A DNA stretch of 64,000 nucleotides. Origin: Leucoraja ocellata (Eukaryota). Within the stretch, counting starts at the first letter, position 1, and every line of letters starts with the position of its first letter. Location of the stretch: assembly GCA_036785375.1 (NCBI GenBank), contig JAWMAR010000710.1:186001-250000 (forward strand), in the 5' to 3' direction. The notes under the pieces are model-generated. The model was not told where the DNA came from. It searched no databases and worked only from the letters and a program-made list of their open reading frames with translations. Shown piece after piece: positions 5,711 to 52,748 of this stretch. The translations under genes and the position numbers were made by a program.

Positions 5711-6049
5711 CTGTAACTGTGATTAGATCAATGGTGACATATTTATTTGATCCTATGTAGCATGTGTAGACTCCAGCATCTGCAAACTGCACGGGGACAA
5801 TCCTCACATGGAAATTCGTGCCATTCACATTTCCCTCTGTGGTTTTCAGTCGATTCCCAAAGTTACTCATGTCGACATGGATCGGCTCAGACCTGTGAGA
5901 AGAATCTATTTCCTTCTCTTGATTTTGGACACGTTGTGATCTCCAAGTCCATTTGGTTTCATTGAGCTCAAGAGAAGCTTTACAAATCAGGTCGAGTTCA
6001 CTGTGATCTGTGACGGAACGATAAACTGTGTACATCTTGTTATGTAAAT
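5711..6049 (-). CDS. Gene A exon D3: V-set Ig domain
   Basis: Acceptor CTCTCTTGCAG| and donor |GTAGGA; 339 bp, phase 1-1, no stop. LDLIC...WTW...FGNRL...DAGVYTC with the two Cys 74 residues apart. Confidence 0.9.
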
Positions 6050-6849
6050 CTGCAAGAGAGGAACAGGGAACAAAGAATTAGATTTCCACAGATAGTGAGA
6101 TACAGATAATCTGAATTTCCACAGGGACAAACCCCCAGCTCTGGAATGTCAGCTGGGAGGGCCGCACTGAGACAGGAAAGTCGGCTGGGAGCTGCAATAC
6201 GCTGGCTGCCGGCCCAGGTGCCCATTGTTCAAACGCCGGGCTGTGCACCAAAGTCCATCTTCCCCAGACACACACCCAGCAAAGTGATGCCAGTGGACTG
6301 GAGATAATAAACAATCTGTTACCCAGTCTCAGAAATCGATTACAGTGAAATATTTATCACACATTGAACTGGGCAACAGGTTGTTACACAAGGTGAGTCA
6401 TACAGTGAGAGGGACATGAAGGAACATTATTTGGAAGATGAGAGTGACACTGAATGTCAGACACTAAGATCACTGGAGTGAGTGACAAACAACACCCAAC
6501 CCAAGGAAATGGCTCAGCCAACAACTGAATTTTGGTGCAGCTGTACATTATCTTGAATAAGTTAATATTCCCATCTACTCTGGACAGAAGACAACTTGCT
6601 TCTCTCCATTGATTGATGTTATCCCCTTTGATTCATGCAGGTGAATTGAAATTAATCCCTTGGTTCTCCTGTGTAGCTCCATCAATTTTAATGCCACCGT
6701 TTTATATTTACACTGTGTCCCAGGTTAAAGGCAATGCCAATATCCTGCAGTGAAAGCCCACGGTGAAGTCAGAGCTCACTGTACAATATGTGCAACAGTT
6801 TGATATCAGGAACTATTTACTACCTGCTGCAAGGCAGCTTTGGACTCAC

Positions 6850-7122
6850 CCTGATCCACTTCAACATTGGTGTCTCCAGTGAGAACAATGGAGCCATTTT
6901 CCTGCACTTCCCATGTGTACAGATTGGGATTTCCTGCTCCAACATGTTGGATCATCAGATAGACGATGTTATTCAGATGGATCTGATCAGTGTTGTTCCT
7001 CCTGTTCTGCTGAGCTGAGCCTCTTGGTTTCCAGTGAAGACTGACGGTATCTGGGAGTCTGGAGATGGTACAGCTGAGGGTGATGTCACTGCCCATTACT
7101 GGCCTCGGTGAGTCTGCCTCAA
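6850..7122 (-). CDS. Gene A exon D2: C2-like Ig domain (F-strand Cys replaced by Trp)
   Basis: Acceptor ATTTCCACAG| and donor |GTGAGT; 273 bp, phase 1-1, no stop. GSDITLSC...LHW...YLMIQHV...LYTW; paralogous to the exons at 29361 and 42800. Confidence 0.88.
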
Positions 7123-8138
7123 CTGTGGAAATAGACACATGATGTGTGGTTCAGTCCAGCTTTCTGAACGACTGCGGGCAGAATTGTCTCTTTCCTGCAA
7201 ACAGACAGTCGGCCGAATGTTGAGCATCCGTGCTCAGTGATGTCATCCCCACTTCCTGGTAGTGACCACCTGCCCCCCTTGTCCCCCTCGTCTCCCATAT
7301 CTACCCGCTGCTCCCGAACAACATCATCCAAAGACATTGAGCAGCTTCCACAGGTAGGTTCCCAGCACCAGCTCTGCCTCCCGCCACCTCACGCAACCCT
7401 CCCATGGTCTCTGTGCTGTCGATGACTTGGCTAACAATGGCCTGGTGAAGCAAGGTCATTGCTGCTGACCTTGAGGAAGCTGCTACAGAGGTTGGGCCCT
7501 CTCTGTGGCCAGGACTTCACTTTCCCAGTGTCAGGGCCAGTTTATGGGAATATCTGTCCTAAACATGGCCATCATATTACCAGAGCTGACATTCATATTA
7601 AACCCTCCCCAGTGACGGAAAATGAAGAAGGGAAAACTGAAAGTTAATGTTAATATTTTAACAATTTACAGAATCCAATATGTTGGAACACAGATCTTAG
7701 ATATTGATGTAGCTAAAATATAAGCATTTTTGCCAACATGCTCCAAGAGCCACACTTCATCTTTGGTCTGGGCAAGTTGTTACCTTCTATTGTCAATATG
7801 GAACTTCCATCTACATAAGGATTATTACCGTCAGGCATCATTGTTTTCCGTTTCCTCTCTGTGTAGAGAGTGTGTCACAGTCGGCCAGAACCACATCATC
7901 AACAAATTACTTAGCTACAGTGACTTGATCTTATCCCACCTGCCACAGGTCTTCTCTCTATCAGGAGAAGTTCCCTGGTTTCACCACATTTCAATGCTGC
8001 GTGGGCTGCCGTCATCATCTAATTTCCCAGAAATCTCATCAAATAACTGACCTAATTCCAACAATCTGTCACAAATTTGTGGAAAAGATTTACAGAAAAA
8101 CACATTTGTCTACCCTTTCTGTTCCTTGTCCGACATAC

Positions 8139-8477
8139 CTTTGATCACAAATAGTTCCCACTGTCTCAGGATTTTCCCACTGGGCTGTGCTTGATTCCAG
8201 GTGAAGAGCCCTGCAAGTTCAAAGATGGGTTTCCTGATCCTCAGATTAAGGGTACCCCAGTCCATATGCATACTCTGGGAAATGCCTGGTATTTGATTGT
8301 ACTCATCACTCCATTTTACGCCCCACTGCTGATCTTCTCTGTGAAAAGTAGCCAATTGCTTTGTGGTTTGTTGCCCTGAGTGTGGCCTCCATTCCAAGTC
8401 AATGGGGCCATTTCCAGGACTGTCTGGTCCTTTCAACACATAGTTGCCTTCCTGGTGGAAAAAGTAAATAGTAGTTC
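8139..8477 (-). CDS. Gene A exon D1: cysteine-less V-like Ig domain
   Basis: Acceptor TTTTCTGGCAG| and donor |GTATGT; 339 bp, phase 1-1, no stop. GTTIYF..YVLKGP..LEWRPHSG..LNLRIRKPIFELAGLFTW..ILRQWELFVIK; homologous to the exons at 22991 and 51428. Confidence 0.85.
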
Positions 8478-11400
8478 CTGCCAGAAAAGCAAAATAGTGT
8501 TTTAATATCGGACGATAACTTCTCAGTCTGATAGTAAGATTAAACGAGAACTTACCAGTTTGAAGTTTGATCTGTATTTTATGAGGAGTTACGATGAGGG
8601 ATTACGTGAAGAAGCCCGCTTCCACGCATGCGTGTCATACTTCAAAGCAGCGGTGTGAGGTCACAGGAACCTATAATGATCTAACATAGTAAGATTACCA
8701 AAGAGATACCAGTTTTTGATATGATCATAAGAGGGTGGGAGCGGAGGGCACGTAATCCCTCATCGTAACTCCTCATAAAATACAGATCAAACTTCAAACT
8801 GGTAAGTTCTCGTTTAATCTTACTATTTTACTTCGGAGTCACGTGAGTGACTACGTGAAGATTTCAAAGCTCTGTGACCTCATGCCGTGGAACGAGTCCA
8901 TGCTTCACAAACTGCCTTGGGTATTGGGAGAGAGCATCATTAGTAATTTTAAACACAATTATACAAAGAGTTGTGTGGTATAACGAAAAAATATATAACA
9001 TTTTTTAAAAATTTGAGAATCATAGCCCTGTAACCTTTCGGGCAAATTATTTTGTTGAACATAAAATGTTTTCTTAATACAATGATATAGTTTGAGTCAT
9101 GACCCTTTCATGCGGTTTCTTGTAAGAGATAAACAACTCCATTCTCTGACCTCGAATGTTCTTAGTATATTCTATGTATTGTTAGATGTGTCTTGCTATA
9201 CAGTCGTTTGCCATATGGGTGTACCATAAATTCAAACACTTGACCCGAGGAACCCGATCTGTTTTCTTTTATTAAATCCTGTATGACAACACCAGTTTCT
9301 CGGTGAGATGATCAGGGAGTCCAGGCTCAGTTTGCTTAATGGCTGGACTTGTTGTGCGGTAAATAACACCATGAGCATAACCATCTTCCTGGACTGTTAC
9401 TGAAGTGACAACGCTGTTATGAGCTACAGGCTCCTCAGCATGTTGAGAAACGACACCCACGTCCCAGATTTCGGAGTACCTGGTTTTCTTACCAGGGGTG
9501 CGTTTCCACCGCGTGCCGCTCCGTTCCTTGTGATAGGTAATTGGAGAGCGCACTTGTGGCACTATTGAAGGCAATGTAGCTCCATCGATTATCCTAATGG
9601 AGGCTTGTAAAAATTCCAATACGGCCAGAATGTTCTTGGCCTTTTGGTCGAGATTGTTGTCCAAGCAGTATATGCCCCATTTCTTGATGTGTCCAAGGTA
9701 CTGCTTCCGTGTTGACAGTCTTAGTGCAGATGAGATGAGATTCATCGTCCTGTCTGACAGTGTAGTGGGTCTGTTAGACTCTACAAATCAATAAATCCAT
9801 AGTGTTATGGCATGGATGACTGCCTCCAGTCACTGGATAAATCAATAATTTTTTGGCAATGTTCATAGGGAACATGGTTCTAACACCATCCCCTGTAAGA
9901 CTGAAATACCATGATTGAGAAGGTCAGTCGGGTACTCTGAAAATTCCAGATGCCGAGTGTGGTTGAATTATCCCTAGTACCCCAATGATGGGTCCGAACG
10001 GGGGAAAACCTCACCCTATGGCTTATTTACATAACAATGCCAAGCTGGTTTACGAATTTTTGTACATAATAATGGGGCTAATGATTGCCCCTTATGTAAG
10101 CTCTATATTGCCAAAGTTCCTCTATTGAGTCAATGCCTGCCATATAGAAACCCACAACTGACACCAAGTCTATATCAATAATAAGAGCATCCATCTTAAA
10201 ATGAATATCTAAAACAAATGTGTTTAGGGTTAAAATCAATGATAATCCTGCAACCCTACTCTATCTTATATTTAATAATATGTTCAATCCCATCTTTTGT
10301 GTACAATTCTTGTAGCACCATGTGGGTTTTAGATTGTTTGGTTTATGTAAGGACAAAATGCCCTTCTGGTGTATGATGTACTGTGGTTAATGGGATGAGA
10401 AAAACCCTATCAGATAACCCTGAATACTGCTGAGATTATATGAATCTGTAGTGATTATATACCATACATAACTGTAGTGTTGCAACCACCCCTACCATCG
10501 TAGGTCCCTATTTTAACAGAAGAAAACCCCACCCACCTACCTCCCTGGTTACCGGTGGTTTTGTTATTTCCTTGGTTTTTTGAAAATAAGGTTCTGGTTT
10601 AATATTTCTTGTTCGGGGTTGTGTGGGAGGTTGAGGCTTCCGCATCTTCCAGGGTGGCCGCCCTGGCCATACCCTTAAACGGATCCTGCGGGTTATATTG
10701 ATTTCTGACACTGCTACTGGTATGAGCCACATTTTTTATGGCCTTGCCTGTGGATGGTATCATGCTCCAAAATAGGCCCTTGCGCTGGCCTTGATGAGCC
10801 CCAGTGTCTTGGCTTAGTCCACACACGGTTTTTATTTGCAAATGGTAGCATTTTTGGGGTCCTAGTGCTGGCTGAATGGCCGCCTTCCACGTGTAGTTCA
10901 GGTTATATTGCATATTATTAAACAGATCTAGTGCGTCTTGATGGTCTTTGGTTACCTACGTTTAGTCCAGGGTGCGGGTGTATGCTATGATGCCTTCCGT
11001 CAATCCCTTGAAGGTTCTCTGGATCTTGAGGTCCTGGTTCCTGATGTTCGTCCCCATATGCTGCCAAATGCATTGGATTACACTGGGCACCTGTAATGCC
11101 TCACCGTTGCCAGGTGGCAGATGTCTGGCCAGTGTTTGTAAATTTTTCTTGTTGGCGTTTGTGGCCAGACATATAGTAATACTATTGCCATCCTGGATCC
11201 AAGTCTACCCATGTTTGACTTGGCTAAAGTAATCGGCCACCATGTCCAGCAGAGTCCCTGCTGTGTTAGGATCATGGGACGCTGTATTACCAGGCTCTGG
11301 CCCATCAGGGTCCTGCCTACTCTTTTTTATAGAGTTAGAGATCTCTAGGGTCCCGCACGGGGTACCCATGTGGGGCTTAACTGCTGCCCACTTGTCTTTT

Positions 11401-11984
11401 GTTCTGCGGACCCCTCTTGCAGGTCAGCCCAGAACTGACCCACAGTGCTCCCCTCTGATGGGGTAGAAACATTGTGCAGCCCTCAAAGAGGTACTGCTGT
11501 GGTTTTATCACGTTGGAGCAAGGCTCCACACACCGCTACTTCCCGCTCCAGCCCTCTCGGGCACTGGTTGCCGGCGGTTTTATGCAAAGTCGGACCCTTC
11601 CGAGTCCACTACCTTGTTTTATTTGTGTCTAGCCTACCGCTCGGTCACATGGATCTGGCCGGTGCGGGGCCGACATCGGGCACAGCTGATCCCACTACGG
11701 TTGATCCAAGTGCCGCTGGCTGCTGCTGGCTGCCCGCTGTTCCATGGTCCTCCTTCTCCAGTGTTGTCCTTCCTTCCGTGGAGTGGATATGGCCGGTGTG
11801 GAGGATAACTGGCACAGCTGCTTCCATCTATTCCTTTAACCTGGCTTGAACGCTCTCAGCACTCCTGGCTGCTCCTTTATCTTAGACCCCTGGGACCCAC
11901 CCCCGTACTGACGGTACTGGTCCCTTATGGTCGTTGCAGCCGGTCAACCCCACTCTAATGCCCTCAATTCTGGGCACTCCTACT

Positions 11985-12042
11985 TATATGGTCCTTAGAT
12001 AAGGGACATATAAGACATTAAAACTGATGATAACAGCTACTA
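11985..12042 (-). pseudogene. Second, more diverged U2 fragment (nt ~34-90) in tandem with the first
   Basis: Minus strand TAGTAGCTGTTATCATCAGTTTTAATGTCTTATATGTCCCTTATCTAAGGACCATATA aligns to U2 nt 34-90 with several substitutions. Confidence 0.85.
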
Positions 12043-12054
12043 TAGTTTTTATAT

Positions 12055-12148
12055 AATATATATAGTCCCTAGATAAGGGGTGTATCAGATATTAAACTGA
12101 TAAGAACAGATACTACACTTGATCTTAGCCAAAAAGCCGAGAAGCGAT
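12055..12148 (-). ncRNA. RNU2: U2 snRNA 5' portion (nt 1 to ~90), 3'-truncated before the Sm site, inside the DIRS element
   Basis: Minus strand reads ATCGCTTCTCGGCTTTTTGGCTAAGATCAAGTGTAGTATCTGTTCTTATCAGTTTAATATCTGATAC: 66/67 identical to vertebrate U2 nt 1-67 as I recall it, followed by a stem IIb-like CCCT-TATCT-AGGG. No Sm site or 3' stems. Confidence 0.95.
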
Positions 12149-12359
12149 TATTGTAACTAAAACCCCGCTGGGACCGATCCTGGTACTCACATACTGGTCC
12201 CTTGTAGTAGATTGCAGCCAGTCAACTGCAAAGTCCTTTGCTGCCGAGAAATGAACTTTCTCACCGTGCTGGAGCGAAGTTGGGCACAGGTGTTTTTCCC
12301 CCTCCGGGAATCGATGTGCCCATGCTGCTCCTGCCGTTGCCAGCTCCTCACGAAGTGCC

Positions 12360-12470
12360 AGCTGCCACTGCTGCTGTCTGTGCTACTGCAAACTGCCGGC
12401 TGCCACTGCTGCTGCCGCTGCCGCTGCTGCTGCCGGCTGCCACTGCTGCTGCCGCTGCTGCTGCCGCTCC
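12360..12470. repeat. Imperfect (CTG/CCG)n trinucleotide repeat within the DIRS 5' region
   Basis: gctgccactgctgctgccgctgccgctgctgctgcc...; gives the Q/S-rich ORF 12187-12519 (-). Confidence 0.85.
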
Positions 12471-13629
12471 TCCGCGGTTCTCCCGCCGGCCTTCTGCACC
12501 TTACATGGACCTGGTCCATGTCTGCACCTAGAAAGGTAAGTTGAAGGAAACGCAGGGTCTCTTACCTGCTGTTCCCGACTTTCCTTCTCCCGCCGGTGAC
12601 CGTCGTTCCCTGTGTCGGGTTCGAGCCGCTTGGACCGACCCCGGTGTTCACGGGCCTGGTCCTTCGCGGCAGTTCCGCAGCCGGTAACCCCGGCTGTTCC
12701 TATAGATCCCCTGGACCCTGGTGCTTACCTTGTGAACAAGGTTTTCAGCCCGAACGTCCCGTTCCGACTCCATAAGTGCCGCTGCACTCGCTGAGCGTTT
12801 CGAGCCCCGGTACCGCTGGTCCGAGCTGTCTGTCCCGCAGCCTCTGTGCTGGCTGCTAGCGACTGGTCCCAAGCCAGTCTCGTTTGAGACTGGCATAGGG
12901 ACCTTTTTTACTTTGCTTCCCGCCCGGCCGAGAGGTGAATTTTGCCGGTGCGGGAGCAAAGTCGGGCTCAGGTTGTTCCCCTCCAGGGAAACTCGTGCTG
13001 TTGCTGCTGCTGGCTGCTCGCCCTCCACGGGTCTCCCCGCCAGCTTTCCGCAGCCTCCTAAAAGTAAGTAGTAAAAAGGAACGCAGAGTCTCTTACCTGC
13101 TGTTCCCGACTTTCAAATCTCCCGCTTGGGGAACGCCGTTCCCCCTGTGTGACTCGTTGCAATGCGTGTAGCGATATGACACGCATGCGTGGAAGCGGGC
13201 TTCTTCACGTAGTCACTCACGTGACTCCGAAGTAAAATCTATGTCGTACTGAATACTGTGAAATTGTTTTCTTTAAAAAGGTTGTTAGTTATAGTTTATA
13301 GAATGATAGAATTTTATAACAGTGAAACAGACCCTCTAACCCAGCCCAGCGATGTCGACCAGTGTACTCTTCCATATTTGTCCCATTTGTTTGGTCAATT
13401 GTCCGCAATGCCAATGTGATTCAAGTGTGATTTGCCCAGCAGTTTTAAATACAACTATATTTTACAACAAGCAGTGAAGTACATCCATAGAACAGCTTAC
13501 CATTGCATCACTAATGTAACAATACATCACAGTTAAGCTAGACGTTTTATAATTTGATAAGCACATGAGATTGGCATCAGAGGAGAGCAGAAATGGTACA
13601 CAGTTACCACAGGTAATGATGTTTGGTTT

Positions 13630-13900
13630 AGTTTTGTTTAGTTAGTTTCAAGATGCAGTGTGGAAACACGTCCTTTGTCCCACCGGGCGCATGATGGCCA
13701 CTGATCACCCCACACAATAGTTCTATCCTACACCCAAGAGATAATTTACAGAGACCGCTTAACCTACAATCCTGCAAATATTTGCAATGTGGGAGGAAAC
13801 CGGAGGGTCTGGAGAAAAGCCATACGATCACAGGGAGAACGTACAAACACCATACAGACAGCACCCTTGGTCAGGATTGAACCCAGGTCTCTGGCACTGT
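13630..13900 (-). mobile_element. tRNA-derived SINE
   Basis: B-box GGTTCAATCC on the minus strand, conserved core CTCCGGTTTCCTCCCACA and (CTAAA)-like tail; same type as 20788, 41135 and 61555. Confidence 0.8.
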
Positions 13901-14242
13901 TCACCAGCCCTTGTGAATGTGTGAATTCAGATTATTGAACATATGGTTTGGGGGAAGAGTTTGAGAGGAGCTGAGATACATGATGGTGTGGGGAGATTGT
14001 ACGGACATTACACAGTCTCCCAGTCTAATCAAGTCTTCTATGAGAAAAGTGGAGGGAGGGCTGGGTGACCCAACAATGACCAATGGAGATGGGGCAGAGG
14101 AGGGCAGGTTTTTTTGCAAACAGCCTGCAGCCATGTCCAATCATCGATGGCAACAGGAGACAGAAGGCGATGACAGAGAGTTGTTTTTACACCTGGATGC
14201 CTGTTACTAACGGTGACTAATGGTGTTCCACAAGGTTTGGTC

Positions 14243-14442
14243 NNNNNNNNNNNNNNNNNNNNNNNNNNNNNNNNNNNNNNNNNNNNNNNNNNNNNNNNNN
14301 NNNNNNNNNNNNNNNNNNNNNNNNNNNNNNNNNNNNNNNNNNNNNNNNNNNNNNNNNNNNNNNNNNNNNNNNNNNNNNNNNNNNNNNNNNNNNNNNNNNN
14401 NNNNNNNNNNNNNNNNNNNNNNNNNNNNNNNNNNNNNNNNNN
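14243..14442. other. Assembly gap (200 N)
   Basis: Run of N; true size unknown. Confidence 1.
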
Positions 14443-22421: not shown

Positions 22422-22506
22422 ATGAGGCCTAGTTTTCTCTGCAGCATTTGCCAGTTCGTTTGATGTTCGGTTTCTTTGTATTCCTGCTTCGAGCTGTTTC
22501 CACAGA
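22422..22506 (+). pseudogene. Gene B leader (signal-peptide) exon, frameshifted
   Basis: Inverted paralogue of 52661-52748: ATGAGGCC..., LMFGFFVFLLRAVST, donor GTAAGT. Small deletions give a TGA in the first-ATG frame. Confidence 0.75.
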
Positions 22507-22990: not shown

Positions 22991-23326
22991 TAATAGAAGT
23001 CGAACGTATTTCTTGGATAATAGAGACGACATTGTGTTAAACGGACCGGACAATCCTGAGAAAGACACTGTTGTTGTCTGGGAATGGAAACCACACTCAG
23101 GAAAATCGAAAAATTAATGACTTTTAGAAGAATGAGGGGCTATTGGATCATAGAGAAGGCTGCTGGCGAGAGTAACGTGGACTTGTACCTAGAAGTGAAT
23201 GTTAATCCCTTTACCCTTGATCTGGCAATTTATAAACCCACATTTAAATGGGCATATTTTTCACTTTGGCTCAAACAGAACCGAGAAAGGAAATCCTGAA
23301 ACAATATGAGATATTTGGGATCAAAG
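22991..23326 (+). pseudogene. Gene B D1 exon (Cys-less V-like), two frameshifts
   Basis: RTYF..IVLNGPDNP..VWEWKPHSG / KLMTF..LDLAIYKPTFKWA / FTLAQTEPRKEILKQYEIFGIK|GTGAAT; aligns to gene A D1. Confidence 0.85.
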
Positions 23327-24001: not shown

Positions 24002-27000
24002 AGTCAAGTCATGTCAAGTCAAGTTTATTTGTCACATACACATACGAGATGTGCAGTGAAATGAAAGTGGCAATGCTCGCGGAACAACAAAACAACCAAA
24101 CAAATTATAAACACAATCATAACACACATATTATTTTACATAATAAATAATAGAAGGAAAAACGTTCTGTACAGTTAGTCCCTGGTGAGAAAGGTGTTTA
24201 CAGTCCGAATTGCCTCTGGGAAGAAACTCCTTCTCAACCTCTCCGTTCTCACTGCATGGCAACGGAGGCGTTTGCCTGACCGTAGCGGCTGGAACAGTCT
24301 GTTGCAGGGGTGGAAGAGGTCTCTCATGATTTTGTTTGCTCTGGAGTTGCACCTCCTGTTGTATAGGTCCTGCAGGGGGGTGAGTGAAGTTCCCATAGTG
24401 CGTTCGGCCAAACGCACTACTCTCTGCAGAGCCTTCTTGTCCTTGGCAGAGCAATTCCCGAACCAGATGGTAATGTTCCCGGACAAGATGCTTTCCACCG
24501 CCGCAGCGTAGAAGCACTGGAGGATCCTCGGAGACACTCTGAATTTCCTCAATTGCCTGAGGTGGTAAAGGCGCTGCCTTGCCTTACTCACCAGTGCTGA
24601 GGCGTGTGATGACCATGTCATATCCTCAGAGATGTGGACTCCCAGATATTTAAAACAGTTCACCCTATCCACAGGATCCCCATTTATACTCAATGGAGTG
24701 TACGTCCTCGGATGATGTGCCCTCCTAAAGTCCATGATCAGCTCCTTCGTTTTTTTGATGTTCAAGAGGAGGCTGTTCTCCTGGCACCAGAGTGCTAGAT
24801 CAGCCACCTCCTCCCGGTAGGCCCTCTCATCATTGTCTGAGATCAGGCCCACCACCACAGTGTCATCAGCAAACTTAATTATTGAATTGGAGCTGAACCT
24901 AGCCACACAGTCATGTGTGTACAGGGAGTACAATAGGGGGCTGAGGACGCAACCCTGGGGCGATCCTGTGCTCAGGGTGAGGGACTTCGATGTATTCCCT
25001 CCCATCTTGACTACCTGGGGCCTGGCGGTGAGAAAGTCCAGGACCCAGGCACACAGGGAGGAGTTGAGCCCCAATTCCAGTAGCTTCCCGGCCAGTCTGG
25101 TGGGGACTATCGTGTTGAAGGCTGAACTGTAGTCTATGAACAGCATCCTCACGTAGCCCCCCTTCTGGCTGTCCAGATGGGAGAGAGCGGTGTGCAAGAC
25201 CTGGGAGACCGCATCGTCCGTGGACCTGTTCGGACGGTATGCAAACTGCAACGGGTCCATGTTCCGAGGGAGGAAGGCGCAGATGTGATTCTTCACCAGC
25301 CTCTCAAAGCATTTCATGACTACCGAGGTAAGGGCCACCGGACGGTAGTCATTCAGGCAGGCTGGGGAGGCATTTTTTGGTACCGGTACGATGATGGATT
25401 TTTTGAAGCAGGCAGGGACCACGGACTTGTCCAGGGAGAGGTTGAATAATGTAGTGAGCACTGGAGCTAGCTGCGTAGCACAGGACTTGAGTACTCGCCC
25501 CGGGATGCCATCGGGGCCTGCAGCTTTTCTTGTGTTCACCCGTGTCAGTGCCCTCCTCACATCGTGCTCGGACAGCGAGAATGTGTGCATATTCCTCCCT
25601 TCAGCTTCGGTAGCCAGCCCGCTGTCGGTATTGTCGATAGTCGGCAGACCTGGAGTGGTGTTGCCCCTCTCGAAACGAGCGTAGAAGGAGTTCAGGTCGT
25701 CAGCTAGGGAGGTGCCGGCACATGCGGATGAGGGAGCGGTGCTTCGGTAGTTGGTTACAATCCGTAGCCCCTGCCACAGGCTTCTGGTGTCCTGCTGCTC
25801 CATCTGTAACTCCATCTTGTCCCTGTACCTTCTCTTTGCATCCTTCACCGCCCTTCGCATTCGGTAGGACTCTGCCTTGTAGACGTCCATGTTTCCTGAT
25901 GCCAAGCCCGAGTTGTAGGCAGCGGTACGAGCATTCAAGGCCACACGAACAGATCTGTCTACCCAGGGTTTTTGGTTCGGGAAGGTGCTTACCCTTACCG
26001 TGGGGATGATGTTGTCGGTTAATGTTGCGATGAAGTCCATGACTGCTTCCGCGAACTCACTGACGTCACTGGAACTTGCTTCGAACATATTCCAGTCGAC
26101 ATTACTCAGTGCATCTTGCAGCATGGCCTCTGACTGGTCGGACCACCGCTTTACGTCCCTCGTCTCTACCGCTTCCCGAACTATCCTCTGTTTATACTCC
26201 GGCAACAGGAAAATAGCAGCGTGGTCAGATTTTCCTAGGGGAGGGAGTGAAACGGCCTTGTAGCCTTTCCTGAACGGTGTGTAGCAGTGGTCCAAAGTTC
26301 TCTCCCCCCTGGTGGCACACGTGATGTGTTGGTAGAAGTTCGGCATGACCTTCTTGAGATTTGATTTATTAAAATCTCCAGCCACCACCATAGCCGCTTC
26401 CGGGTACTTGTTTTGATGTCGACATAGCACATCGTGTAGGGCCGAAAGTGCCACGTCGGTGTCCGCCTGCGGTGGAATGTAGACGGCTGTGACGATCACT
26501 GAGCCGAACTCCCGGGGAAGGTAGAATGGGCGGCATGAGATCGTCAGGTGCTCCAGATCCGGCGAGCAGGAACGGGAAAGCATCTTGATATTTCCAGGGT
26601 TGCACCAGTTGTTATTGGTCATGAAGCAGGCTCCTCCACCCTTGGATTTCCCAGATGCTTCTGTTCTGTCAGCACGGTGGACAGTGAAGGACTCGGTTGG
26701 GCAGATTACCTGATCCGGAATCAGTGAGGTCAGCCATGTTTCAGTCAGGCAGAGGATGTTGCAGTTCCTTATGTCCCGCTGGAATCTGATCCTCGCCCTG
26801 AGGTCATCCAGCTTGTTTTCCAGGGACTGGACATTCGCCAGAAGAATGCTGGGCAGAGGGGGACGAAAGGCTTGGGCTCTCAGCCTATTCCGAATCCCCC
26901 CCCGCTTCCCTCGATGTTTTCTCCGGGTTTTCCTTGCAGCCGAGCTCCCTTTGTTGTTGCAGCAGCTTCTGCTGATCTCTGCTGGCCATGCTGGATCAGT

Positions 27001-27180: not shown

Positions 27181-27704
27181 CGGCCATTGTAGAGCCTGTT
27201 CTCACCTTCTCCATCATGGTCTGGTTTGGCTCAGTCACCAAGCACGGCACCTGGAGGCTGCAGCGAATCATCCGATCAGCAGAGAAGGTTATTGGCTGCA
27301 ATCTTCCCTCCATTGATGAACTGTACACTGCAAGGGCCAGGAAGCGAGCGGGCAAGATCATCTCTGACCCCTCACAAACTCTTTGAATCACTTCCCTCTG
27401 GATGGCAACTCCGGATTGTCACAGCTGCCACAGCCAGACAGAAAAACAGTATTTATCCACGAGTAGTTGCTCTACTCAACAACCAAAAATCTGTAGCCTC
27501 CCTTTGATCTGGTATTTTGTTGGTTCACATGCTTAATCAATGGTGTTTTTACATTAATGTTTTATTATTATTAATGTTTAGTGTTTTCTGAGTCATTCGT
27601 AACTGTCACTATGTCATGTTGTTACTTGTGGGTGGAGCACCAAGGCAAATTCCTTGTATGTGAATACTTGAGCAATAAACTTACTTACTTACTGACTTAC
27701 TTAT

Positions 27705-29360: not shown

Positions 29361-29625
29361 TTGATGCAAGTCCACAGCGCTCTCTGCTGGGGAATAACGT
29401 CACACTCAGCTGCACCATCTCCAGGCTCTCAGATACAGTCAGTCTTCATTGGAGACCAATGAACTCATCCCAGCAGAACACGAGCAACACTGATCAGATC
29501 CACCTGAATAACATGGTCTATCTGATGGTTCGACATGTTACAGTGGAGGATGGGAGGTATGTGTGTGAAGTGCAGGAATACGGAAACATTGTTCACACGT
29601 AACGCAGGTTTTACTGTAGAATGGA
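29361..29625 (+). pseudogene. Gene B D2 exon (C2-like Ig), frameshifted near its 3' end
   Basis: Acceptor TTTTTCACAG|; VDASPQR..VTLSCTISRL..W..YVCEV. A 2-nt deletion relative to the 42800 copy creates TAA at 29600-29602. Confidence 0.88.
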
Positions 29626-29814
29626 GTAAATGTGCACACCTCTCATTAGATATTAAGTAGACATTTGTATCATCGGTGCTTCTTGCAATGTCTAATGTGC
29701 AGCCTGTGAAGAACTGTGGACAGTGACCAACTGCTCTCATGCATAAAATGCTGAATGGTCAGAGAGAAGTTTCCAGAAAGTCTCTCTGTGGAGCAGCTGC
29801 CTGCTTGTCTTTGT

Positions 29815-39659: not shown

Positions 39660-39669
39660 ATAGTCGCTC

Positions 39670-40337: not shown

Positions 40338-41830
40338 AGGTGGTATTCTTCTAAACGCCTGGCTATACTACAGTAGCCAGCAACCCAAAGGCACGAGTAT
40401 TGAATTTCCTAATTTCAAGTTGTCTCAGACCGATGATCCAGTTCCCTGCATTCTCCCCTTCCTCGGCTCTTCCTTTCCCTCCCACACTCTCCCCCAGCCA
40501 GATGATGCAGCTAACTCCATGTTGGTTCCCTCATTCCCTCAAGGCAATCAAGTCTTTTCTCTGAATTTCATTTCTCATTAAATTCCTCTCCGAGTGGATC
40601 CTCACAGCCTCCAGAGCTCCAAGCTCTTTACTGTAGCTCAGCTCTCTGTTTCCATCACTTTGCCATTTCTTCTTCAACACAGTGCCTCTGCTTTTCATCA
40701 GCCACTGACCCACTTCAGTTCCCTGTGGTGAACATGGCTCCTGCATCCATGACCTCTGCCACCCTACATTCAAAATAAAGGAAAAGTGATCACATTTGTT
40801 TTTATTGTGGTGACAATCCCTTAGTTGATATAGAAAGTTTACAATAACTGTACTGTAATGTCTGGCACTATGATATCCTCCCTCTCTACACTTCACATCA
40901 AAAGATAAACCCCAGTCTCACAACCATCTTGGTGGAAAGTCCACTGACAAAATGATGGGCACTGGCAGGAGTAGCCGCGGTAAGAATGATGGAAATTCAG
41001 CAACCAATCTCCACAGAGAATGTTCTCACAATGTGCTAATATTCAGATTAATAACTGTTGATTTGTGGATAAATAATGGTCAGGCCAATGGCAACAATTC
41101 ACCTATTGATATCTGTAGATTCACAAAATGCAGGTGAGTTTAGTTTAGAGATACAGCACAGAAAGAGGCCACTCGGCACACTGAGACCCAACAAACCAGC
41201 GAACCGCGCACACTTATATACATACTCTAGAGGCAATTCACATTTGTACCAAGCCAATTATCCTACACATCTGTACATTTTTGGAGTGTGGAAAGAAACC
41301 AAATATCTCAGAGAAAACCCAAGCGGTCAAGTGGAGAATGTACAAATTAGGTACAGACAGCAGCAGTAGTCAGGAGCTAACCTGGGTCTCTGGCACTGTA
41401 AGGCAGCAACTCTGCTACTGCACCACCGTGCCCCTCAGAGATAGCGGGCAACATATCAGTGATTATATAATCTTATAGATACAACCTCCAACAGTTTAGT
41501 TCTCCCTCACTTCTACACCTGAGTGAGAAATGAAATTTCATTTTTTAGTAAAATCATTATTGTTAGTTGTTATAATTCTGAAATACAAGCTGAAGGGACA
41601 GCAAATATCCCAGCAATGGTCATTGTTGTTGTTGTATCATTCATCTTCATTGTTTTTCCACAATATCTATGGAAGCTGAATACAGATGTTGAACCAGTGT
41701 GAAGAAAACTGATTCTCACTTTTAAGTAATGGCAGGAAATGCAGTGCATTTAAAAGCTTGATGTAACAATTATGTTAAGTCTGAGCAGGTATAAAGGTGG
41801 AAAGCTACAAATTAGTTTGAAAGTCAATTC
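40338..41830 (+). repeat. Segmental duplication block S2 (direct copy at 59169-59241 + 60966-62430)
   Basis: Co-linear match including a shared SINE (41135-41432 vs 61555-61846). The empty L1 site is at 40398-40411. Confidence 0.92.
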
Positions 41831-42799
41831 CTGAAAGCGGCCTTGGTGACATTGATGGGTTGAGAGAGTGTTGCTGATGCTATTACTTCCTGCTGGTCTT
41901 TTAGGCGACTAGATGTCCAGGTCCGGAACCAGGAAGACAATCGCAAACCAGCTGGACTTCACTGTGATCTGAGCTGGGGCAGTGAAGTGTGTGACATGTG
42001 CTGAAATGTCCATAGCAGCGAGACAAAATAATATAACTCCTTTCAGCATCACAGTTACTGAGGCACAAGGGGTAATCAGGTAAAAATTCCCCACCAGATT
42101 TTTATTAAAATTCTTTGATTTGTTCATCTGATGTTTCAAAATGTGACCTTGCATGAATTCCACAATAAAACACTTTAGGTTTTACACAATAATTAGCTGG
42201 TCTGGCACCCCAGTGACTCCCCCGTGGGAATGGTGAACGTCTCCTGACCCTCTCACTAACCCTCATACAGAACCAGCATGCTTCAAACTTCAGCCCTACC
42301 CCACTCTCTGTCACATTCCTCTGTCCACCAGCTGCCTCCTTCCTCTCTTTGCATCCAATTCCAACCTTCCCTTCATTCCCATTATTCCCACCATCCCTCT
42401 CCCATTCACACCCATTGGTTCCCAGCCCTTCCCTCTTCCTGGGTCCTGCTCCCAGCTGAATGCTGATCAGAAGCCCGAGTCCGGAGCAGCTTCAACCTGA
42501 AGAAGAGTTCTGACCCAAAACATCACATTAATCTTCTCCGGTAATGCCCCACTGAGTTACTCTTACTAAACATATTAAATTCATTCTTTCAGTATTGTGT
42601 ATCTGTCAAACAGAGATGAACAGGCAGCTGCTCCACAGGGAGACTTTCTTGAAGCTTCTCCTTGAACACTGAAGCATTTTGTACAAGAGAGATTTTTGCC
42701 ATGAACTACAATTCTTCACGGGGTGCACACAGGATGTTATAATAAGCACCAATGGTACAAGTGTATGTTCAATATCTAATATGAGGTATTGACACTTAC

Positions 42800-43069
42800 C
42801 CAAAATAACATTAAAATTGGCGTTACTTGTATGAACGATTTTTCCTTTTTCCCGCACTTCACACACATACAGCTTCCCATCCTCCACTGTAACATGTTGG
42901 GGCATCAGGTAGACCGTGTTATTCAGACGGATCTGATCAGTGTTGCTCCTGTTCTGCTGTGATTAGTCCATTGGTCTCCACTGAAGACTGACTGTATCTG
43001 AGAGTCTGGAGATGGTGCAGCTGAGTGTGACGTCACTGCCCAGCAGAGGGCGCTGTGGACTTGCCTCAA
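42800..43069 (-). pseudogene. Gene C D2 exon (C2-like Ig) with in-frame TAA
   Basis: Acceptor TTTTTCACAG| and donor |GTAAGT; 270 bp; VTLSC..W..YVC with Cys 52 apart; stop at 42963-42965 where gene B has TCA. Confidence 0.88.
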
Positions 43070-43099
43070 CTGTGAAAAACAGATCAACGAGAGTCAGAG

Positions 43100-44325: not shown

Positions 44326-44548
44326 TTTTAATTTTTTTTAATCAAAATTATTTATTCAAATATTAATATAATATTTACAAGACAATAAAACACAACACAA
44401 CCCACCACCATAACACAAGACAAACAATAAACTATTATACAACTATCTTACAGTCCTTGTCAAGGATGCAATCACCCCCTGCAGTGCCCAGCGGTCCCGG
44501 AAATCCCCCAGAGTGCCCATGGAGACTGCATGGTTCCTTTCCAAACCA
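44326..44548 (-). mobile_element. 3' end of a Tx1/L1-like LINE
   Basis: Poly(A) remnant with AATAAA; C-terminal GDFRDRW-like motif. Confidence 0.55.
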
Positions 44549-44846
44549 CGTGTGGCGCAAAATGGCGGCGGCGCGGGCACACCGCGACGCCCTGTGTCTC
44601 CCTAGAATGGGAAAAATAGCAACGATCCCCTTACCTGCTTCAAGGCTGCTCACTCGGAGCAGTCTTGTACTCATCTCGTACAGCCGACAGGAACTTCTGG
44701 ACTTCGGTTCCCGCGGCTGCAACAACTTTTTGGACGATCTCCCTCTTCCGACTGAGCTCATCAGAGCAACAGAGCACCCGACTGGAGACCGCCAGGTGAG
44801 TCGCGGGGTTGGAGACCGCCATCCGACCCGCGGAGCCCAACCGACC

Positions 44847-45152
44847 CTCGGCCCTCGCCCGACTCCCGGCCCTCGCTCGACTCCCGGCCCTCACCGGATC
44901 CCCGGTCCTCGCCCGACTCCCGGTTCTCGCCCGATCCCCGGCCTTGACCCGACCCCCGGCCCACGCCTGACGCCCGGCCCTCACCGGATCCCCGGTCCTC
45001 GCCCGACTCCCGACCCACGCCCGACCCCCGGTCCTCGCCCGACTCCCGGCCCACGCCCGACGCCCGGCCCTCACCGGATCCCCGGCCCTGACCCGACCCC
45101 CGGTCCTGGCCCGACTCCCGGTACTCACCCGATCCCCGGAGCCCAACCGTCC
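44847..45152 (+). repeat. 18-bp coding minisatellite (~17 units, PGPRPT-like) with 90-bp higher-order period
   Basis: The PGPHRI variant recurs at units 3, 8 and 13. Confidence 0.9.
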
Positions 45153-45200
45153 CGCGGAGCTGGAGAACGCCAGGTGAGTCCCGGAGCTGGAGAACGCCGC

Positions 45201-45713
45201 GGAGCTGGAGACCACCACCCGACCCGTGGAGCTGGAGACCACCACCCGACCCGTGGAGCTGGAGACCACCACCCGACCCGTGGAGCTGGAGACCACCACC
45301 CGACCCGTGGAGCTGGAGACCACCACCCGACCCGTGGAGCTGGAGACCACCACCCGACCCGTGGAGCTGGAGACCACCACCCGACCCGTGGAGCTGGAGA
45401 CCGCCACCCGACCCGTGGAGCTGGAGACCACCACCCGACCCGTGGAGCTGGAGACCACCACCTGACCCGTGGAGCTGGAGACCACCACCCGACCCGTGGA
45501 GCTGAAGAACGCCACCCGACCCGTGGAGCTGGAGACCACCACCCGACCCGTGGAGCTGGAGAACGCCACCCGACCCGTGGAGCTGGAGACCACCACCCGA
45601 CCCGTGGAGCTGGAGACCACCACCCGACCCGGGGAGCTGGAGACCACCACCCGACCCATGGAGCTGGAGAACGCCACCCGACCCGTGGAGCTGGAGACCA
45701 CCACCCGACCCGT
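45201..45713 (+). repeat. 27-bp coding minisatellite, 19 units GGAGCTGGAGACCACCACCCGACCCGT (GAGDHHPTR)
   Basis: Counted from the sequence and its translation. Confidence 0.95.
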
Positions 45714-48700
45714 GGAGCTGGAGAACGCCAGGTAAGCCCCGGGGCTGGAGACCATCAGCAGAGCCGCGGGGCTGAAGACCGCCTGCGGAGTAACGCAGAC
45801 GCGGAGCAACGGAGCGGCAGAACACCAGCGCGCACCAAGCCAGCTCGGCCCACCAGAAGCACCAACAGACGGCGACGGGTACGAAAACACCGCCGGGGAC
45901 GCAGAGGTGGGTTAAAGGCCAGGTTAGAGCTAGCCCCACACAGGGCAGCGATTCCTAGCCTTTTCCTCGCCAACGTGCGCTCACTGGCAAACAAAATGGA
46001 TGAACTCCGGCTAAGGATCACCTCCCACAACCGGATCAAGGACTGCAACATCTTGATCTTCACTGAAACTTGGCTCAACACTGACGTTCCTGACAGCGCC
46101 ATCCAGCTATCGGGGCGTCATTTACTCCGAGCGGACAGGACATCAGACTCTGGTAAGACCAGAGGGGGGGTCTGTGCATTTATGTAAACAAAGCATGGTG
46201 CACGGACTCCACCATCATCGAGAGTCACTGCTCAGCTAACCTTGAATTCCTCTTGGTTAGATGCAGACCGTTCTATCTGCCCAGAGAGTTCACCTCCACT
46301 GTTGTGACTGCAGCCTACATCCCTCCTGATGCTAATGCCAAGCTTGCAATGAAAGAGCTGCATACTGCCATCAGCAAACAACAGACTCACAACCCCGAGG
46401 CAGCCTTCATTGTTGCGGGTGACTTCAATCACTCCAACCTGAAGACTGTACTCCCCAAATTCCACCAACATGTATCCTTCCCCACTAGAGTAGACAAGAC
46501 ACTGGACAAAGTCTACACCAACATGGCTGAAGCTTACAAAGCCATCCCCCTCCCCCACCTTGGTCAGTCTGATCACGTCTCATTGTTCCTGCTCCCTAAG
46601 TACTCCCCACTCATCAGACGGGTTAAACCAACTGTAAAGACAGTTAAAGTCTGGTCAGAGGAAGCGGACTTCACACTTCAGCAGTGTTTTGGAAACACTG
46701 ACTGGAAGGCGTTTGCAGCCCAGGCCACCCTTGACTCTCACACGGACATTGATTCCTATACATCCTCTGTTCTGGACTTTATAAACTCCACCATCAATAG
46801 TGTCACCTCCCTCAAACAGGTGACCATATACCCGAATCAGAAGCAATGGATGAACAGCGAGGTCAGGCTACTGCTGAAAGCACGGGACACCGCTTTCAGG
46901 TCAGGCGATGCTCGAGCCTACAGTTCATCCAGGGCTAACCTGAAGAGGGGCATCAGGAAGGCCAAGCACTGCCATAAGCTCAGGATTGAGGAGCACTTCA
47001 ACAACAACTCCGACCCCCGACGCATGTGGCAAGGCATCCAGGCCATCACGGACTACAGACCCTCCAACATCACCCCCACATCCAGCGATGCCTCCTTCCT
47101 TGAGGAGCTTAACCACTTCTATGGCCGCTTTGACAGGGACAATCTAGAGACAGCCATCAAGGCTGTGCTACCTGCCGATCACCAACCCCTCACACTCACC
47201 CCCTACGACGTGTACGTGGCACTGAGTAGGACTAATGCACGTAAGGCTGCTGGCCCTGACGGCATCCCCGGGCGCGTGCTCAGTGCCTGTGCTGCGCAGC
47301 TGACAGACGTCTGGACTGACATCTTCAACCTGTCACTTGCCCAAGCAGTTGTCCCCACTTGCCTTAAAGCCACCTCCATCGTGCCAGTGCCAAAACACTC
47401 CACTGCGGCAAGCCTCAACGACTTCCGCCCAGTTGCACTTACCCCCATCATCACCAAGTGCTTCGAGAGGCTGGTCCTGGCACACCTCAAAAGCTGCCTA
47501 CCCCCCACACTGGATCCCTATCAGTTTGCCTACCGCAAGAACAGGAGTACGGAGGATGCCATCTCAACGGCACTTCACTCCGCCCTCTCCCACCTTGACA
47601 ACAGAGACACTTATGTAAGAATGCTGTTCATCGATTACAGCTCAGCATTCAACACCATTATTCCATCAAAACTGATCACCAAACTCGGTAACCTGGGCAT
47701 CGACCCCTCCCTCTGCAACTGGATACTGGACTTTCTAACCAACAGACCCCAGTCTGTGAGGTTAGACAAGCACACCTCTTCAACCCTCACCCTGAACACC
47801 GGCGTTCCTCAGGGCTGTGTGCTGAGCCCCCTCCTCTACTCCCTCTTCACCTATGACTGCACACCTGTACATGGTACTAACACCATCATCAAGTATGCAG
47901 ATGATACAACGGTGATTGGCCTCATCAGCAACAACGATGAGCTGGCCTACAGGGAGGAGGTCCAGCACTTAGCAGCATGGTGCGCTGACAACAACCTGGC
48001 CCTTAACTCCAAGAAGACCAAGGAGCTCATTGTAGACTTCAGGAAGTCCAGAGGTGGCACGCACACCCCCATCCACATTAACAGGACGGAGGTGGAACGT
48101 GTTTCTAGCTTCAGGTTCCTGGGAGTGAACATCTCCGATGACCTCTCTTGGACCCACAATACCTCTACTCTGATCAAGAAGGCTCATCAGCGTCTCTTCT
48201 TCCTGAGGAGACTGAAGAAGGTCCATCTGTCTCCTCAGATCCTGGTGAACTTCTACCACTGCACCATCGAGAGCATCCTTACCAACTGCATCACAGTATG
48301 GTATGGCAACTGCTCTGTCTCCGACCGGAAGGCACTGCAGAGGGTGGTGAAAATTGCCCAACGCATCACCGGTTCCACGCTCCCCTCCATTGAGTCTGTC
48401 CAAAGCAAGCGCTGTCTGCGGAGGGCGCTCAGCATCGCCAAGGACTGCTCTCACCCCAACCATGGACTGTTTACCCTCCTACCATCCGGGAGGCGCTACA
48501 GGTCTCTCCGTTGCCGAACCAGCAGGTCGAGGAACAGCTTCTTTCCGGCGGCTGTCACTCTACTAAACAACGTACCTCGGTGACTGCCAATCACCCCCCC
48601 CCCTCCCCCGGACACTTATTATTTATTTTTTATTCAAATCGTTTGCTATGTCGCTCTTCAAGGGAGATGATAAATGCATTTCGTTGTCTCTGTACTGTAC

Positions 48701-50915: not shown

Positions 50916-51427
50916 AATTGCCAGTGCTGTGGCTTGTTGGTCACTGTTTAAATGAGGACATTTGTTTTTGCACCAAGGGAAGATTGTAATCTTAGTTGTA
51001 TTGTATTGCATTTATTTTTGAAATGTTTATTATATCAATGATAATACTATACAATATATTATTTCTATTGAAGTCATTATATGGCAACTAATGATATTAT
51101 AATTATTTCTATTGTTGTCATTATAAGGCTACGAATCATATTATAATTATTGTATAAGATATTTCTGAGTTAGTCTTCTCCCATTGATTTTGGTTCCTAC
51201 TGTTGTATTGTGGATTTATTATGTGGAACATATAAAAGTCCCCTGGTGGACATGTTGAGTCACCTGCTACTGCGATTGTCTGTGATCAAAGAAAAGTGAA
51301 GACACTAACTGTAGCCCCATTATTACACATAGCCCTGAGTGACTGGAGTATTCACATCAACACACAGGTTTACACGTGACATTATTAACAGAGAAACTCA
51401 TTATAGATCCATGTCTCACCCACTCAC

Positions 51428-51763
51428 CTTTGATACCATATATTTGATATTGTTTCAGGATTTGCTTCCTCGGCTGTGTTTTAGTCAAAGTGAAGCATCC
51501 CGCCCATTTAAATGCTTATTTTTAATGTCAGTTTACAAGTACTAGCATCAACATCCACCTCCTGGTTCTTGTCTCTGTCTCTCCAGCCATCGCCCCACTG
51601 GATGGCCCAATGCTTGTCCGCTCTGCTGCCAGTTAACACTGTCTGGATTCCCTGCCCTGAGTGTGGTTCCCATTCCCAAACAATGACGTTGCACCAGGAT
51701 TTTCCGGTCCTTTTAAATTAATGCTGCCTCCATTATCCACAAAATAAATCCGATTTCTCTTTT
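51428..51763 (-). pseudogene. Gene C D1 exon (V-like, lacking canonical Cys), two frameshifts
   Basis: Acceptor TTTCCCACAG| and donor |GTGAGT; RIYF..INLKGPENPG / VWEWEPHSG..W..W / FKWAGCFTLTKTQPRKQILKQYQIYGIK. Confidence 0.87.
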
Positions 51764-51877
51764 CTGTGGGAAAGAGGAGCAATGAAGGAATTTAGAACAC
51801 ATTTCCTCCACCCCATGTCAGCAATTTAAAATGTTGAATTCCATTTGTTTCCAGAAAGCTTTGACCTTCCTCTGAAA

Positions 51878-52068
51878 AGACATAAAGTGCTGGAGTAATC
51901 AGCGGGTCAGGCATCATCTCTGGGGAACATGGATAGGTTACAATTTGTGTCAGAACCCTTCATCGGACAACTGTGAATCTGAAGAAGGTTCCTTACCTGA
52001 AATGTCACTTATCCCTATTCACCAGAGGTGCTGACCGACCTGCTGAGTTACTACAGCACGTTGTTTTT
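51878..52068. mobile_element. Head-to-head pair of Penelope terminal-repeat remnants
   Basis: 51878-51965 (-) and 51977-52068 (+) both resemble 50825-50915. Confidence 0.7.
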
Positions 52069-52660
52069 TTCATTCCTTGTGAAGCATAGTCTGAGAAATA
52101 GATTGTCGGAGGTTGGATAAGGGAGTTCAGTATTCCGTCTGCCCATGCCCAGGTCATAGGTCACTAGCTATAAAGTCTCGGCAACAGTGGTGCTGCATTG
52201 TGTGCAGACTTGTGTTTCGTCCGTGGTCGGGGTCGGAGTGCTCTTGTTGCTGCTGCGCCATCCCATCCACGGTGTACCATCCAGGTCCGGAGGTTTCAGG
52301 GGTGGCCTTGGGCTGGCGGTGCGTCCCTGGACTTTCAGCCGTGTGGGTGGGTGGTGGGAGGGGGGGGAACCGTGGACGGTCCAGAAGCGGTTATGCAGTG
52401 CTTGTGGTTCGGCAGCGTTGGTGGTTGCGGGGACACGGGTTCAATCCTGACTGCAAACGAGATGCGGTTATCCGGATGAGAGCTGGTCCAGTCTTCCCCC
52501 CTCCCCCCCCCCCCCCCCCCCCCCCCCCCCACCACCCACCCATACAGCTGAAAGTCCAGGAACAGGGAGAGGAAAGCAAGATTGACAAAAGGGTGCAGGT
52601 TTACACGGACAATGATAAATAAAGCAAGGTGATTGTAACCGGTGAAGTGAAAGCACTTAC

Positions 52661-52748
52661 TCTGTGTGGAAACAGGTCGAAGCAGGAAAACAAAGACACT
52701 GAACATCAAACCATCTGGAAAACCGTTGCAGAGAAACTTCGGCCTCAT
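52661..52748 (-). pseudogene. Gene C leader (signal-peptide) exon, itself intact
   Basis: MRPKFLCNGFPDGLMFSVFVFLLRPVSTQ + 1 nt, then GTAAGT (phase 1), compatible with the D1 acceptor at 51763. Confidence 0.8.

Follow-up and report, generated by a model that had tools for sequence, protein, structure and literature searches.

Paired immune receptors, such as KIR, LILR/PIR, Siglec-5/14 and Siglec-11/16, combine near-identical ectodomains with one of two ends: a tail bearing an immunoreceptor tyrosine-based inhibitory motif (ITIM), which recruits SHP phosphatases, or a charged transmembrane helix, which pairs with DAP12 or FcR-gamma. In the CD2/SLAM family, the C2 domain has two disulfides, the tails carry immunoreceptor tyrosine-based switch motifs, the ligands are found within the family, and the first domains of 2B4, NTB-A and CD48 lack the canonical disulfide. 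Passages of PMC10768021 identify shark CD4 and LAG-3 as genes of their own, defined by their tails (Cx(C/H) in CD4 and a single-exon (F/Y)xxL(D/E) in LAG-3). DICPs, according to the parts consulted of bioRxiv 10.1101/2021.06.11.448072, possess C23 and C104 in both D1 and D2, often with two extra cysteines, and show linkage with the major histocompatibility complex (MHC) in bowfin. In this study, we analyzed 64,000 nucleotides of the skate Leucoraja ocellata (the window; contig JAWMAR010000710.1, here C710, positions 186,001–250,000; positions without a contig prefix are window coordinates), in which a preliminary description had recognized three immunoglobulin (Ig)-superfamily paralogs, A, B and C. 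We found that they belong to a family, as yet unnamed, whose members are type I membrane proteins with one or two V-C2-V-C2 cassettes and a disulfide-free first domain. We propose, with a probability of about 0.75, that the family consists of paired inhibitory and activating immune receptors in a tandem cluster, with gene A an activating-type half-gene and B and C dead.

The D5 exon of gene A matched 49 proteins. All were elasmobranch, and the only one with a name was V9NJF3 of the nurse shark ("obscurin-like"); most were 850–1,000 residues long and had eight Ig domains, that is, the V-C2-V-C2 cassette twice. Members of the same family include V9NJF3, Leucoraja LOC129701493-498 (LOC129701496 is 97% identical to the gene A D5) and Amblyraja LOC116978406-409 and LOC116978603-604. 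Gene A had been taken for a three-domain gene, D1-D2-D3. Its exon sizes (339, 273 and 339 nt, all phase 1, giving 317 open codons), its motifs and the absence of the disulfide were reproduced, but the three domains are D5-D6-D7 of an eight-domain receptor (97% match to protein P0006). Likewise, the leader-D1-D2 arrangement does not extend to all three genes, since a leader is present within the window in B and C only, and D3 is not an extra of gene A alone, since gene C has a D3 remnant. Nor is the window limited to three paralogs: positions 62774–64000 hold exons of the next copy, X2, for its membrane helix and its tail. X2 is an intact eight-domain sister gene (C710:276,462 down to 248,774) with 840 open codons from leader to D8, and domain mapping over 264 kb showed that a unit of about 70 kb occurs three times in tandem, comprising in each case an eight-domain gene and two pseudogenes, one C-type and one B-type.

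The domain that opens each cassette keeps the C-strand Trp in EW(R/K/E)PHSG in all three paralogs (8394, 23082 and 51675), as had been reported. The assignment of L(K/N)GP and FT(W/L) to the B- and F-strand Cys positions was borne out by a structure model and by alignment to a neighboring V exon, in which the Gly of LKGP and the Trp of FTW fell on the two cysteines (a weak profile match, probability 7%, that gives the register only). The D5 sequence had no Pfam match at all, and a D1 profile had a single weak match in the PDB (E 0.43); the fold was therefore assigned from the structure model. The AlphaFold model of D5 was a V-set domain (predicted local distance difference test (pLDDT) 89.5, predicted template modeling score 0.82) that resembled catfish NITR11 (Z 12.7, root mean square deviation (rmsd) 2.2 over 102 residues) and NTB-A (Z 12.2, rmsd 2.1 over 98 residues), with many V domains tied just below. 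As modeled, the cysteine-less domain is an Ig V-set domain, which agrees with the Ig fold originally proposed. In a census of 147 family proteins, 167 of 223 D1/D5 matches had at least 85 aligned positions and were retained (from 117 proteins). None of the 167 domains had cysteines near both the B and F positions, while 165 kept the C-strand Trp and 142 had Gly at the B position.

The spread of the family was assessed with a profile of 19 skate D1/D5 exons, which gave 61 matches among 1.84 billion representative sequences; 20 clusters were looked up by name. Homologs beyond sharks occurred in Callorhinchus, Polypterus, Erpetoichthys, Acipenser, Huso, Amia, Anguilla, Conger and Albula, and the chimaera and ray-finned homologs aligned across the cassette, with a Cys-less D1 and with WxC in D4 wherever D4 was present. 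Four of the 20 clusters were rejected as partial profile matches without C2 domains, namely a bacterial-type repeat protein (P0050) and three cyprinid/loach multi-V clusters. No coelacanth, lungfish, tetrapod or clupeocephalan member was found among the 20 named clusters of the 61 matches, which is weak evidence of absence given the skate bias of the profile. In the source genome (3.4 Gb), D5 matches were obtained in 122 of 150 scored candidates, a figure that sets a lower bound on matches without being a gene count; some of the matches are apparent haplotype duplicates, and 24 copies have the same score. Many copies were four-domain genes. In a D1 subfamily (L041, C5110; L044, C66; and the 24 equal-scoring matches) that lies on many small contigs, the exon starts with a stop and the leader is damaged; the subfamily seems to have been amplified and was possibly carried within a larger repeat. 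Proteins P0051 (Anguilla) and P0001–P0005 (sharks and one ray) contain numerous repeats of the domains and reach 2,139 residues; some of them may be merged gene models.

The family itself is already present in public annotations under meaningless, automatically assigned names (uncharacterized, obscurin-like, CD276 homolog, CEACAM5-like and VCAM1-like) and is not specific to skates, a point that the preliminary description had missed. No account of it was found in the literature searched, which mostly excluded subscription journals, and the supplements of PMC10768021 may list such shark sequences. The view of a distinct, immune-type family with fast turnover was supported by the genome matches, the pseudogenes, the presence of both ITIM-type and charged-helix forms, dN/dS (ratio of nonsynonymous to synonymous substitution rates) values above 1 and the purely automatic names.

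The tails of 133 protein models comprised 54 of ITIM type with an uncharged helix, 21 with a Lys helix, 5 with an Arg helix, 13 others and 40 without a called helix. The Lys helix, GYLxxK, was common to sharks, rays, sturgeon and bowfin. Among 35 genome stretches, a Lys helix was found in 9 and an inhibitory-type tail exon in 4, with neither within 10 kb in the remaining 22. A second charged-helix type, with Arg near the outer end of the helix, was observed in P0014, P0020, P0021, P0042 and P0054 (Mobula and Hemitrygon), which suggests a putative independent activating form in stingray relatives. Two Lys-type members, P0078 (Amia) and P0084 (Huso), have also lost the D3 cysteines. In the Lys-helix genes L039, L098 and L108 (C738), a stop follows straight after the helix, leaving no tail, and Leucoraja P0165 has the same end point. 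When 55 membrane-proximal domain pairs, taken from models with a called helix, were placed on a quick tree, the Lys label required 10 changes (shuffled mean, 13.3), at least 6 of them forced by well-supported branches. Close mixed pairs of Lys and ITIM types occurred in Hypanus, Pristiophorus, Scyliorhinus and Mobula; P0004 and P0010 were joined by a long branch, probably an alignment artifact.

Both kinds of end were found on almost the same ectodomain DNA. Over a 22-kb stretch that starts in intron 1 and ends past D8, a gene on contig C115 (another carrier of the cluster) is 99.5% identical to X2; from there on, the C115 gene continues into an uncharged helix and an ITIM-type exon, whereas X2 continues into a Lys helix and a short tail. 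Gene A and X2 are 97.7% alike and share a single junction in the intron between D8 and the helix, at C710:178,939 and C710:251,278. Upstream of this junction, gene A is 97.5% and X2 99.6% identical to the ITIM-type C115 gene; downstream, they are 96.9% and 97.9% identical, respectively, to the Lys tail of a third copy, X3. The D8 of X3 is canonical, unlike that of gene A and X2 (in gene A, WxC has decayed to HxC). An isolated assembly error is hard to reconcile with one junction in two diverged copies. In Amblyraja P0162, the same degenerate D8 is followed by an ITIM tail, which makes the inhibitory form the likely predecessor. As judged from these alignments, gene A and X2 appear to be ITIM-type ectodomains joined to a predicted activating Lys tail. 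No read across the junction was obtained: at C115:4,745,172, the read assembly was swamped by a repeat and gave no spanning contig, and the one contig with D8 and the membrane exon had them in an order that could not be interpreted.

Selection was estimated as pooled pairwise dN/dS with column-bootstrap intervals for four-domain paralogs from the 35 stretches, restricted to open sequences with at least 90% coverage and with identical ones removed. The intervals clearly excluded 1 for D1 (2.06, 1.41–3.07, n=33) and D3 (2.65, 1.67–4.34, n=21), barely did so for D2 (1.75, 1.01–3.22, n=27) and did not for D4 (1.37, 0.67–3.01, n=19). One RNA run, from a relative, yielded 39 reads on the three gene A exons only; 6 reads skipped the predicted 1,016-nt intron and 6 the predicted 800-nt intron. 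A second run contributed 11 reads, with no joint listed, and a contig from run X4 contained the D5-D6 joint too.

The flanking synteny, whose inspection for CD4/LAG3 or MHC linkage had been recommended, placed the cluster beside ARAP3. On C115, it is flanked by ARAP3 and a P4HA1/2-like gene (P4HA1 and P4HA2 were indistinguishable). ARAP3 and the receptors were on equal-sized contigs in 10 of the 10 elasmobranch species for which the two were both listed from one assembly, an indirect sign of linkage; two further species were not comparable and were left out. Eleven MHC class I matches were located on C563, C541, C392, C2088 and C588 and none on C115 or C710, in what is a fragmented assembly. 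The gene for MLF, which we take to be a neighbor of CD4, was on another contig, as was that for FNIP, and both synteny probes were uninformative.

These features are those of paired receptors: similar ectodomains with an ITIM or a charged helix (99.5% identical DNA with either end), clustered and copy-variable genes, and diversifying outer domains. Accepting this, ITIM-type members with an uncharged helix would bind a ligand and recruit an SHP-type phosphatase, while Lys- or Arg-helix members with a short tail would signal via an ITAM (immunoreceptor tyrosine-based activation motif) adaptor, e.g., DAP12 or FcR-gamma; these couplings are proposed by analogy with known paired receptors. The V domains would be the likely binding surface, under diversification. 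A new activating twin could arise when the ectodomain of an inhibitory gene is joined to an activating tail, of which the junction in gene A and X2 may be an instance.

Several observations weigh against this interpretation. The immune role is predicted from motifs and evolution. Eight ray-finned and chimaera proteins were classified, and none was of ITIM type: two were of Lys type, five fell under "other", and in P0118 no helix was called. In the stretch examined, we did not find the final ITIM exon of the C115 gene; 24 of the 52 inner branches of the quick tree are open, and automatic protein models can be mis-joined in tandem clusters, which would inflate tail mixing. The pairs behind the dN/dS values are non-independent, gene conversion was ignored, and D2, a C2 domain, also exceeded 1. 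Profile matches to LAG-3 and CD4, given below, cover D3-D4 only, and titin, which scores as high by summed repeats, ranked ahead. Finally, none of the 50 RNA reads was at least 99% alike, their source being a relative or paralogs; the reads therefore demonstrate splicing in the family but not the expression of gene A itself. Overall, the family is real, old and unnamed and is built like CD4/LAG-3, and it likely works like known paired Ig receptors. Its architecture, modeled fold, distribution, junction and selection are shown here; its immune function, adaptors and ligand, like a common ancestry with CD4/LAG-3, are proposals.

The alternative that survives best concerns gene A alone. It has no leader or D1-D4 upstream of D5, an insertion of 4.7 kb lies beside its D5 acceptor, a Leu is changed to Ser in its membrane helix, and C115 holds a single such gene; gene A might accordingly be a 5'-truncated pseudogene, or the three 70-kb units of C710 might be partly an assembly artifact, and the family would be real either way. 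We regard this as possible but clearly the less probable explanation. The match to the sister gene stops at sister position 267,357 and restarts at 283,251, past the sister's leader. Because the D4-D5 intron matches its sisters at 98% up to the first N of a scaffold gap and the match resumes 15.9 kb further on, the missing half of gene A coincides with the gap. Furthermore, the five remaining coding exons that were checked are all open, and the units differ by 2–3%, which is above read error. Gene A is the 3' half of an eight-domain activating-type gene, the 5' half of which is probably hidden by the assembly gap.

A second alternative is that the genes are divergent, amplified members of CD4/LAG-3 proper that bind MHC class II. 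The likeness is substantial: the ectodomain is V-C2-V-C2 (by domain map, Pfam and models), doubled in eight-domain members; WxC is in the F strand of D4; and, as passages of PMC10768021 describe for shark CD4 and LAG-3, D1 is in a single exon and activating and inhibitory tails are opposed. Among solved immune receptors, LAG-3 and CD4 also came closest when searched by sequence and by fold. With a deep family profile, LAG-3, the best non-repeat match in the PDB, reached E 5e-15 over D3-D4 including WxC, and CD4 reached 1e-9; for an eight-domain model of low confidence (mean pLDDT 59.9), CD4 gave the highest target TM (template modeling)-score, 0.49. Two arguments with which the preliminary description had separated the genes from CD4/LAG-3 have to be withdrawn. 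The unsplit D1 does not discriminate, as shark CD4 and LAG-3 also lack a D1 intron (PMC10768021, section 3.2), and WxC, said to be absent, is present in D4/D8 of 122 of the 147 proteins (D8 lies outside the window). We nevertheless judge this alternative improbable. WxC, which CD4/LAG-3 have in both D2 and D4, is confined here to D4/D8, D2 carrying YxC and D6 YTW; D1 never has the disulfide, and the cassette is often doubled. Family tails are of the IxYxxI/VxYxxI type (multi-exon) or consist of a Lys/Arg helix and a short tail, and no Cx(C/H) or (F/Y)xxL(D/E) was seen in the tails inspected by eye and by exon structure. Family genes form a multigene cluster by ARAP3, with more than 100 copies, compared with one gene each for CD4 and LAG-3, and shark CD4 and LAG-3 are, in the passages cited, already assigned to other genes. 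The tails, and probably also the copy number and locus, indicate that the family is neither CD4 nor LAG-3, although the cassette probably shares an ancestor with them.

It is very unlikely that the genes represent the DICP family in cartilaginous fishes (paired receptors of D1-D2 or D1a-D2a-D1b-D2b form). DICPs, in the parts consulted of the preprint cited above, are also clustered paired receptors with tandem, repeated V and C2-like units and inhibitory or charged-helix forms. However, their D1 keeps C23 and C104 as well as DICP-specific cysteines, and no family D1/D5 domain in the census has the former pair; the bowfin linkage to MHC is probably not matched here, the cluster adjoining ARAP3 and the MHC class I matches lying on five other contigs of a fragmented assembly; and the bowfin homolog is labeled "uncharacterized", with none of the 20 clusters looked up being named DICP. 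Equally unlikely are CD2/SLAM-like adhesion molecules that bind each other via the disulfide-free V domain, with signaling secondary: 2B4 (Foldseek rank 1, TM-score 0.73), NTB-A and CD48 are among the top fold matches of D5, and the back half of the D1 profile is matched by the cyprinid multi-V proteins, but these fold matches are tied with many V domains (Z 10.4–12.7, 5–16% identity), the disulfide-free N-terminal V domain is a shared trait that does not prove kinship, and the family has ITIM- or adaptor-type tails and V domains under diversifying selection.

With KIR, LILR/PIR and the Siglec pairs, the family shares near-identical ectodomains with alternative ends, birth and death, and selection on outer domains; it differs in domain types and locus, and no sequence evidence of membership was found. 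The MDIRs are likewise multigene activating and inhibitory Ig receptors of skates (PMC3031540, in part); compared by description only, they have CD300/TREM/pIgR-like V domains, the cassette differs, and no homolog bears their name.

Table 1. Coordinates of the receptor exons, gap and insertion in and next to the window.
Feature	Position	Strand	Remarks
Gene A D5 exon, cysteine-less V-set, opens second cassette (earlier "D1")	8139..8477	-	339 nt, phase 1, open; 96% to P0006 D5
Gene A D6 exon, C2-type, F-strand Cys to Trp (YTW)	6850..7122	-	273 nt, open; weak Pfam Ig matches
Gene A D7 exon, canonical V-set	5711..6049	-	Pfam V-set E 2.6e-8
Gene A D8, beyond window start	C710:181,036-181,307	-	domain mapping of contig
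Gene A Lys membrane exon, beyond window start	C710 ~177,572-177,675	-	downstream exon search
Gene A tail exon, beyond window start	C710 ~176,460-176,560	-	downstream exon search
Insertion of 4,706 bp in gene A D4-D5 intron	8532..13237		54 nt upstream of D5 exon; absent from both intact sisters; acceptor undamaged
Rest of gene A D4-D5 intron	13238..14242	-	98% identical to intact sisters up to gap
Scaffold gap, 200 N	14243..14442		in place of ~15.9 kb of sister gene (leader + D1-D4)
Pseudogene B leader exon, frameshift and early stop	22422..22506	+	recurs in sister copy
Pseudogene B D1 exon, cysteine-less V, two frameshifts	22991..23326	+	99.4% to sister copy, gap-free
Pseudogene B D2 exon, 2-nt deletion near end, private to this copy (not in sister)	29361..29626 (end approximate)	+
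Pseudogene C D3 remnant, frameshifted and truncated	41827..42005	-
Pseudogene C D2 exon, in-frame stop common to sister copy	42800..43069	-
Pseudogene C D1 exon, cysteine-less V, two frameshifts	51428..51763	-	89% to intact sister gene
Pseudogene C leader exon, open	52661..52748	-
X2 short tail exon, no ITIM or ITAM	62774..62884	-	acceptor picked by similarity to relatives
X2 membrane exon with central Lys (exon 64004-63901)	63901..64000 in window	-	intact eight-domain sister gene

The earlier recognition of B and C as frameshifted pseudogenes was confirmed, with frameshifts or stops in both (Table 1). The lesions of C and those of the B leader and D1 recur in sister copies 70 kb off that are 98–99% identical, which rules them out as sequencing errors. 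Both genes are dead copies. The D1 of pseudogene B resembles the expanded four-domain subfamily. Reverse-transcriptase open reading frames (ORFs; RVT_1) lie in an intron of B (24175–27201, minus strand, 1,008 codons) and an intron of C (44367–48583, plus strand, 808 codons), and a G+C-rich tandem repeat at about 44.6–45.9 kb is placed ahead of the second one. The 4.7-kb insertion in gene A, which we presume to be DIRS-like, has inverted and direct end repeats, with related ends at 811–1174 and no target-site duplication seen; none of the five ORFs tested in it had a Pfam match. A second 200-N gap, at C710:51,454-51,653, cuts another gene copy after D4. The DNA past this gap matches DNA downstream of the ITIM-type gene of C115, and therefore an inhibitory copy may be hidden there too. 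C115:4,720,001-4,820,000 holds one gene copy compared with at least four whole or partial copies on C710:26,001-290,000, either a large haplotype difference in copy number or a collapsed assembly.

How CD4 and LAG-3 originated is an open question, as are the variable natural killer (NK)-type receptors of sharks and rays. A rather speculative view, which we hold only tentatively, is that the family represents a third branch of CD4/LAG-3 kin: the last common ancestor of jawed vertebrates would have had it as a ready activating/inhibitory pair whose V domain lacked the disulfide, cartilaginous and basal ray-finned fishes would have retained it, and elsewhere it would have been lost or become unrecognizable; the roughly 100 diversifying skate genes could be KIR-like killer-cell receptors that sense MHC or pathogens. 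Given the conserved locus beside ARAP3, both signaling types and selection on the outer domains, the family provides concrete candidates for both questions, with an unusual first domain retained for about 450 million years. In KIR, Ly49 and Siglec pairs, the formation of an activating twin is usually inferred afterwards; the present window appears to record, at the level of bases, the making of such a twin from an inhibitory receptor.

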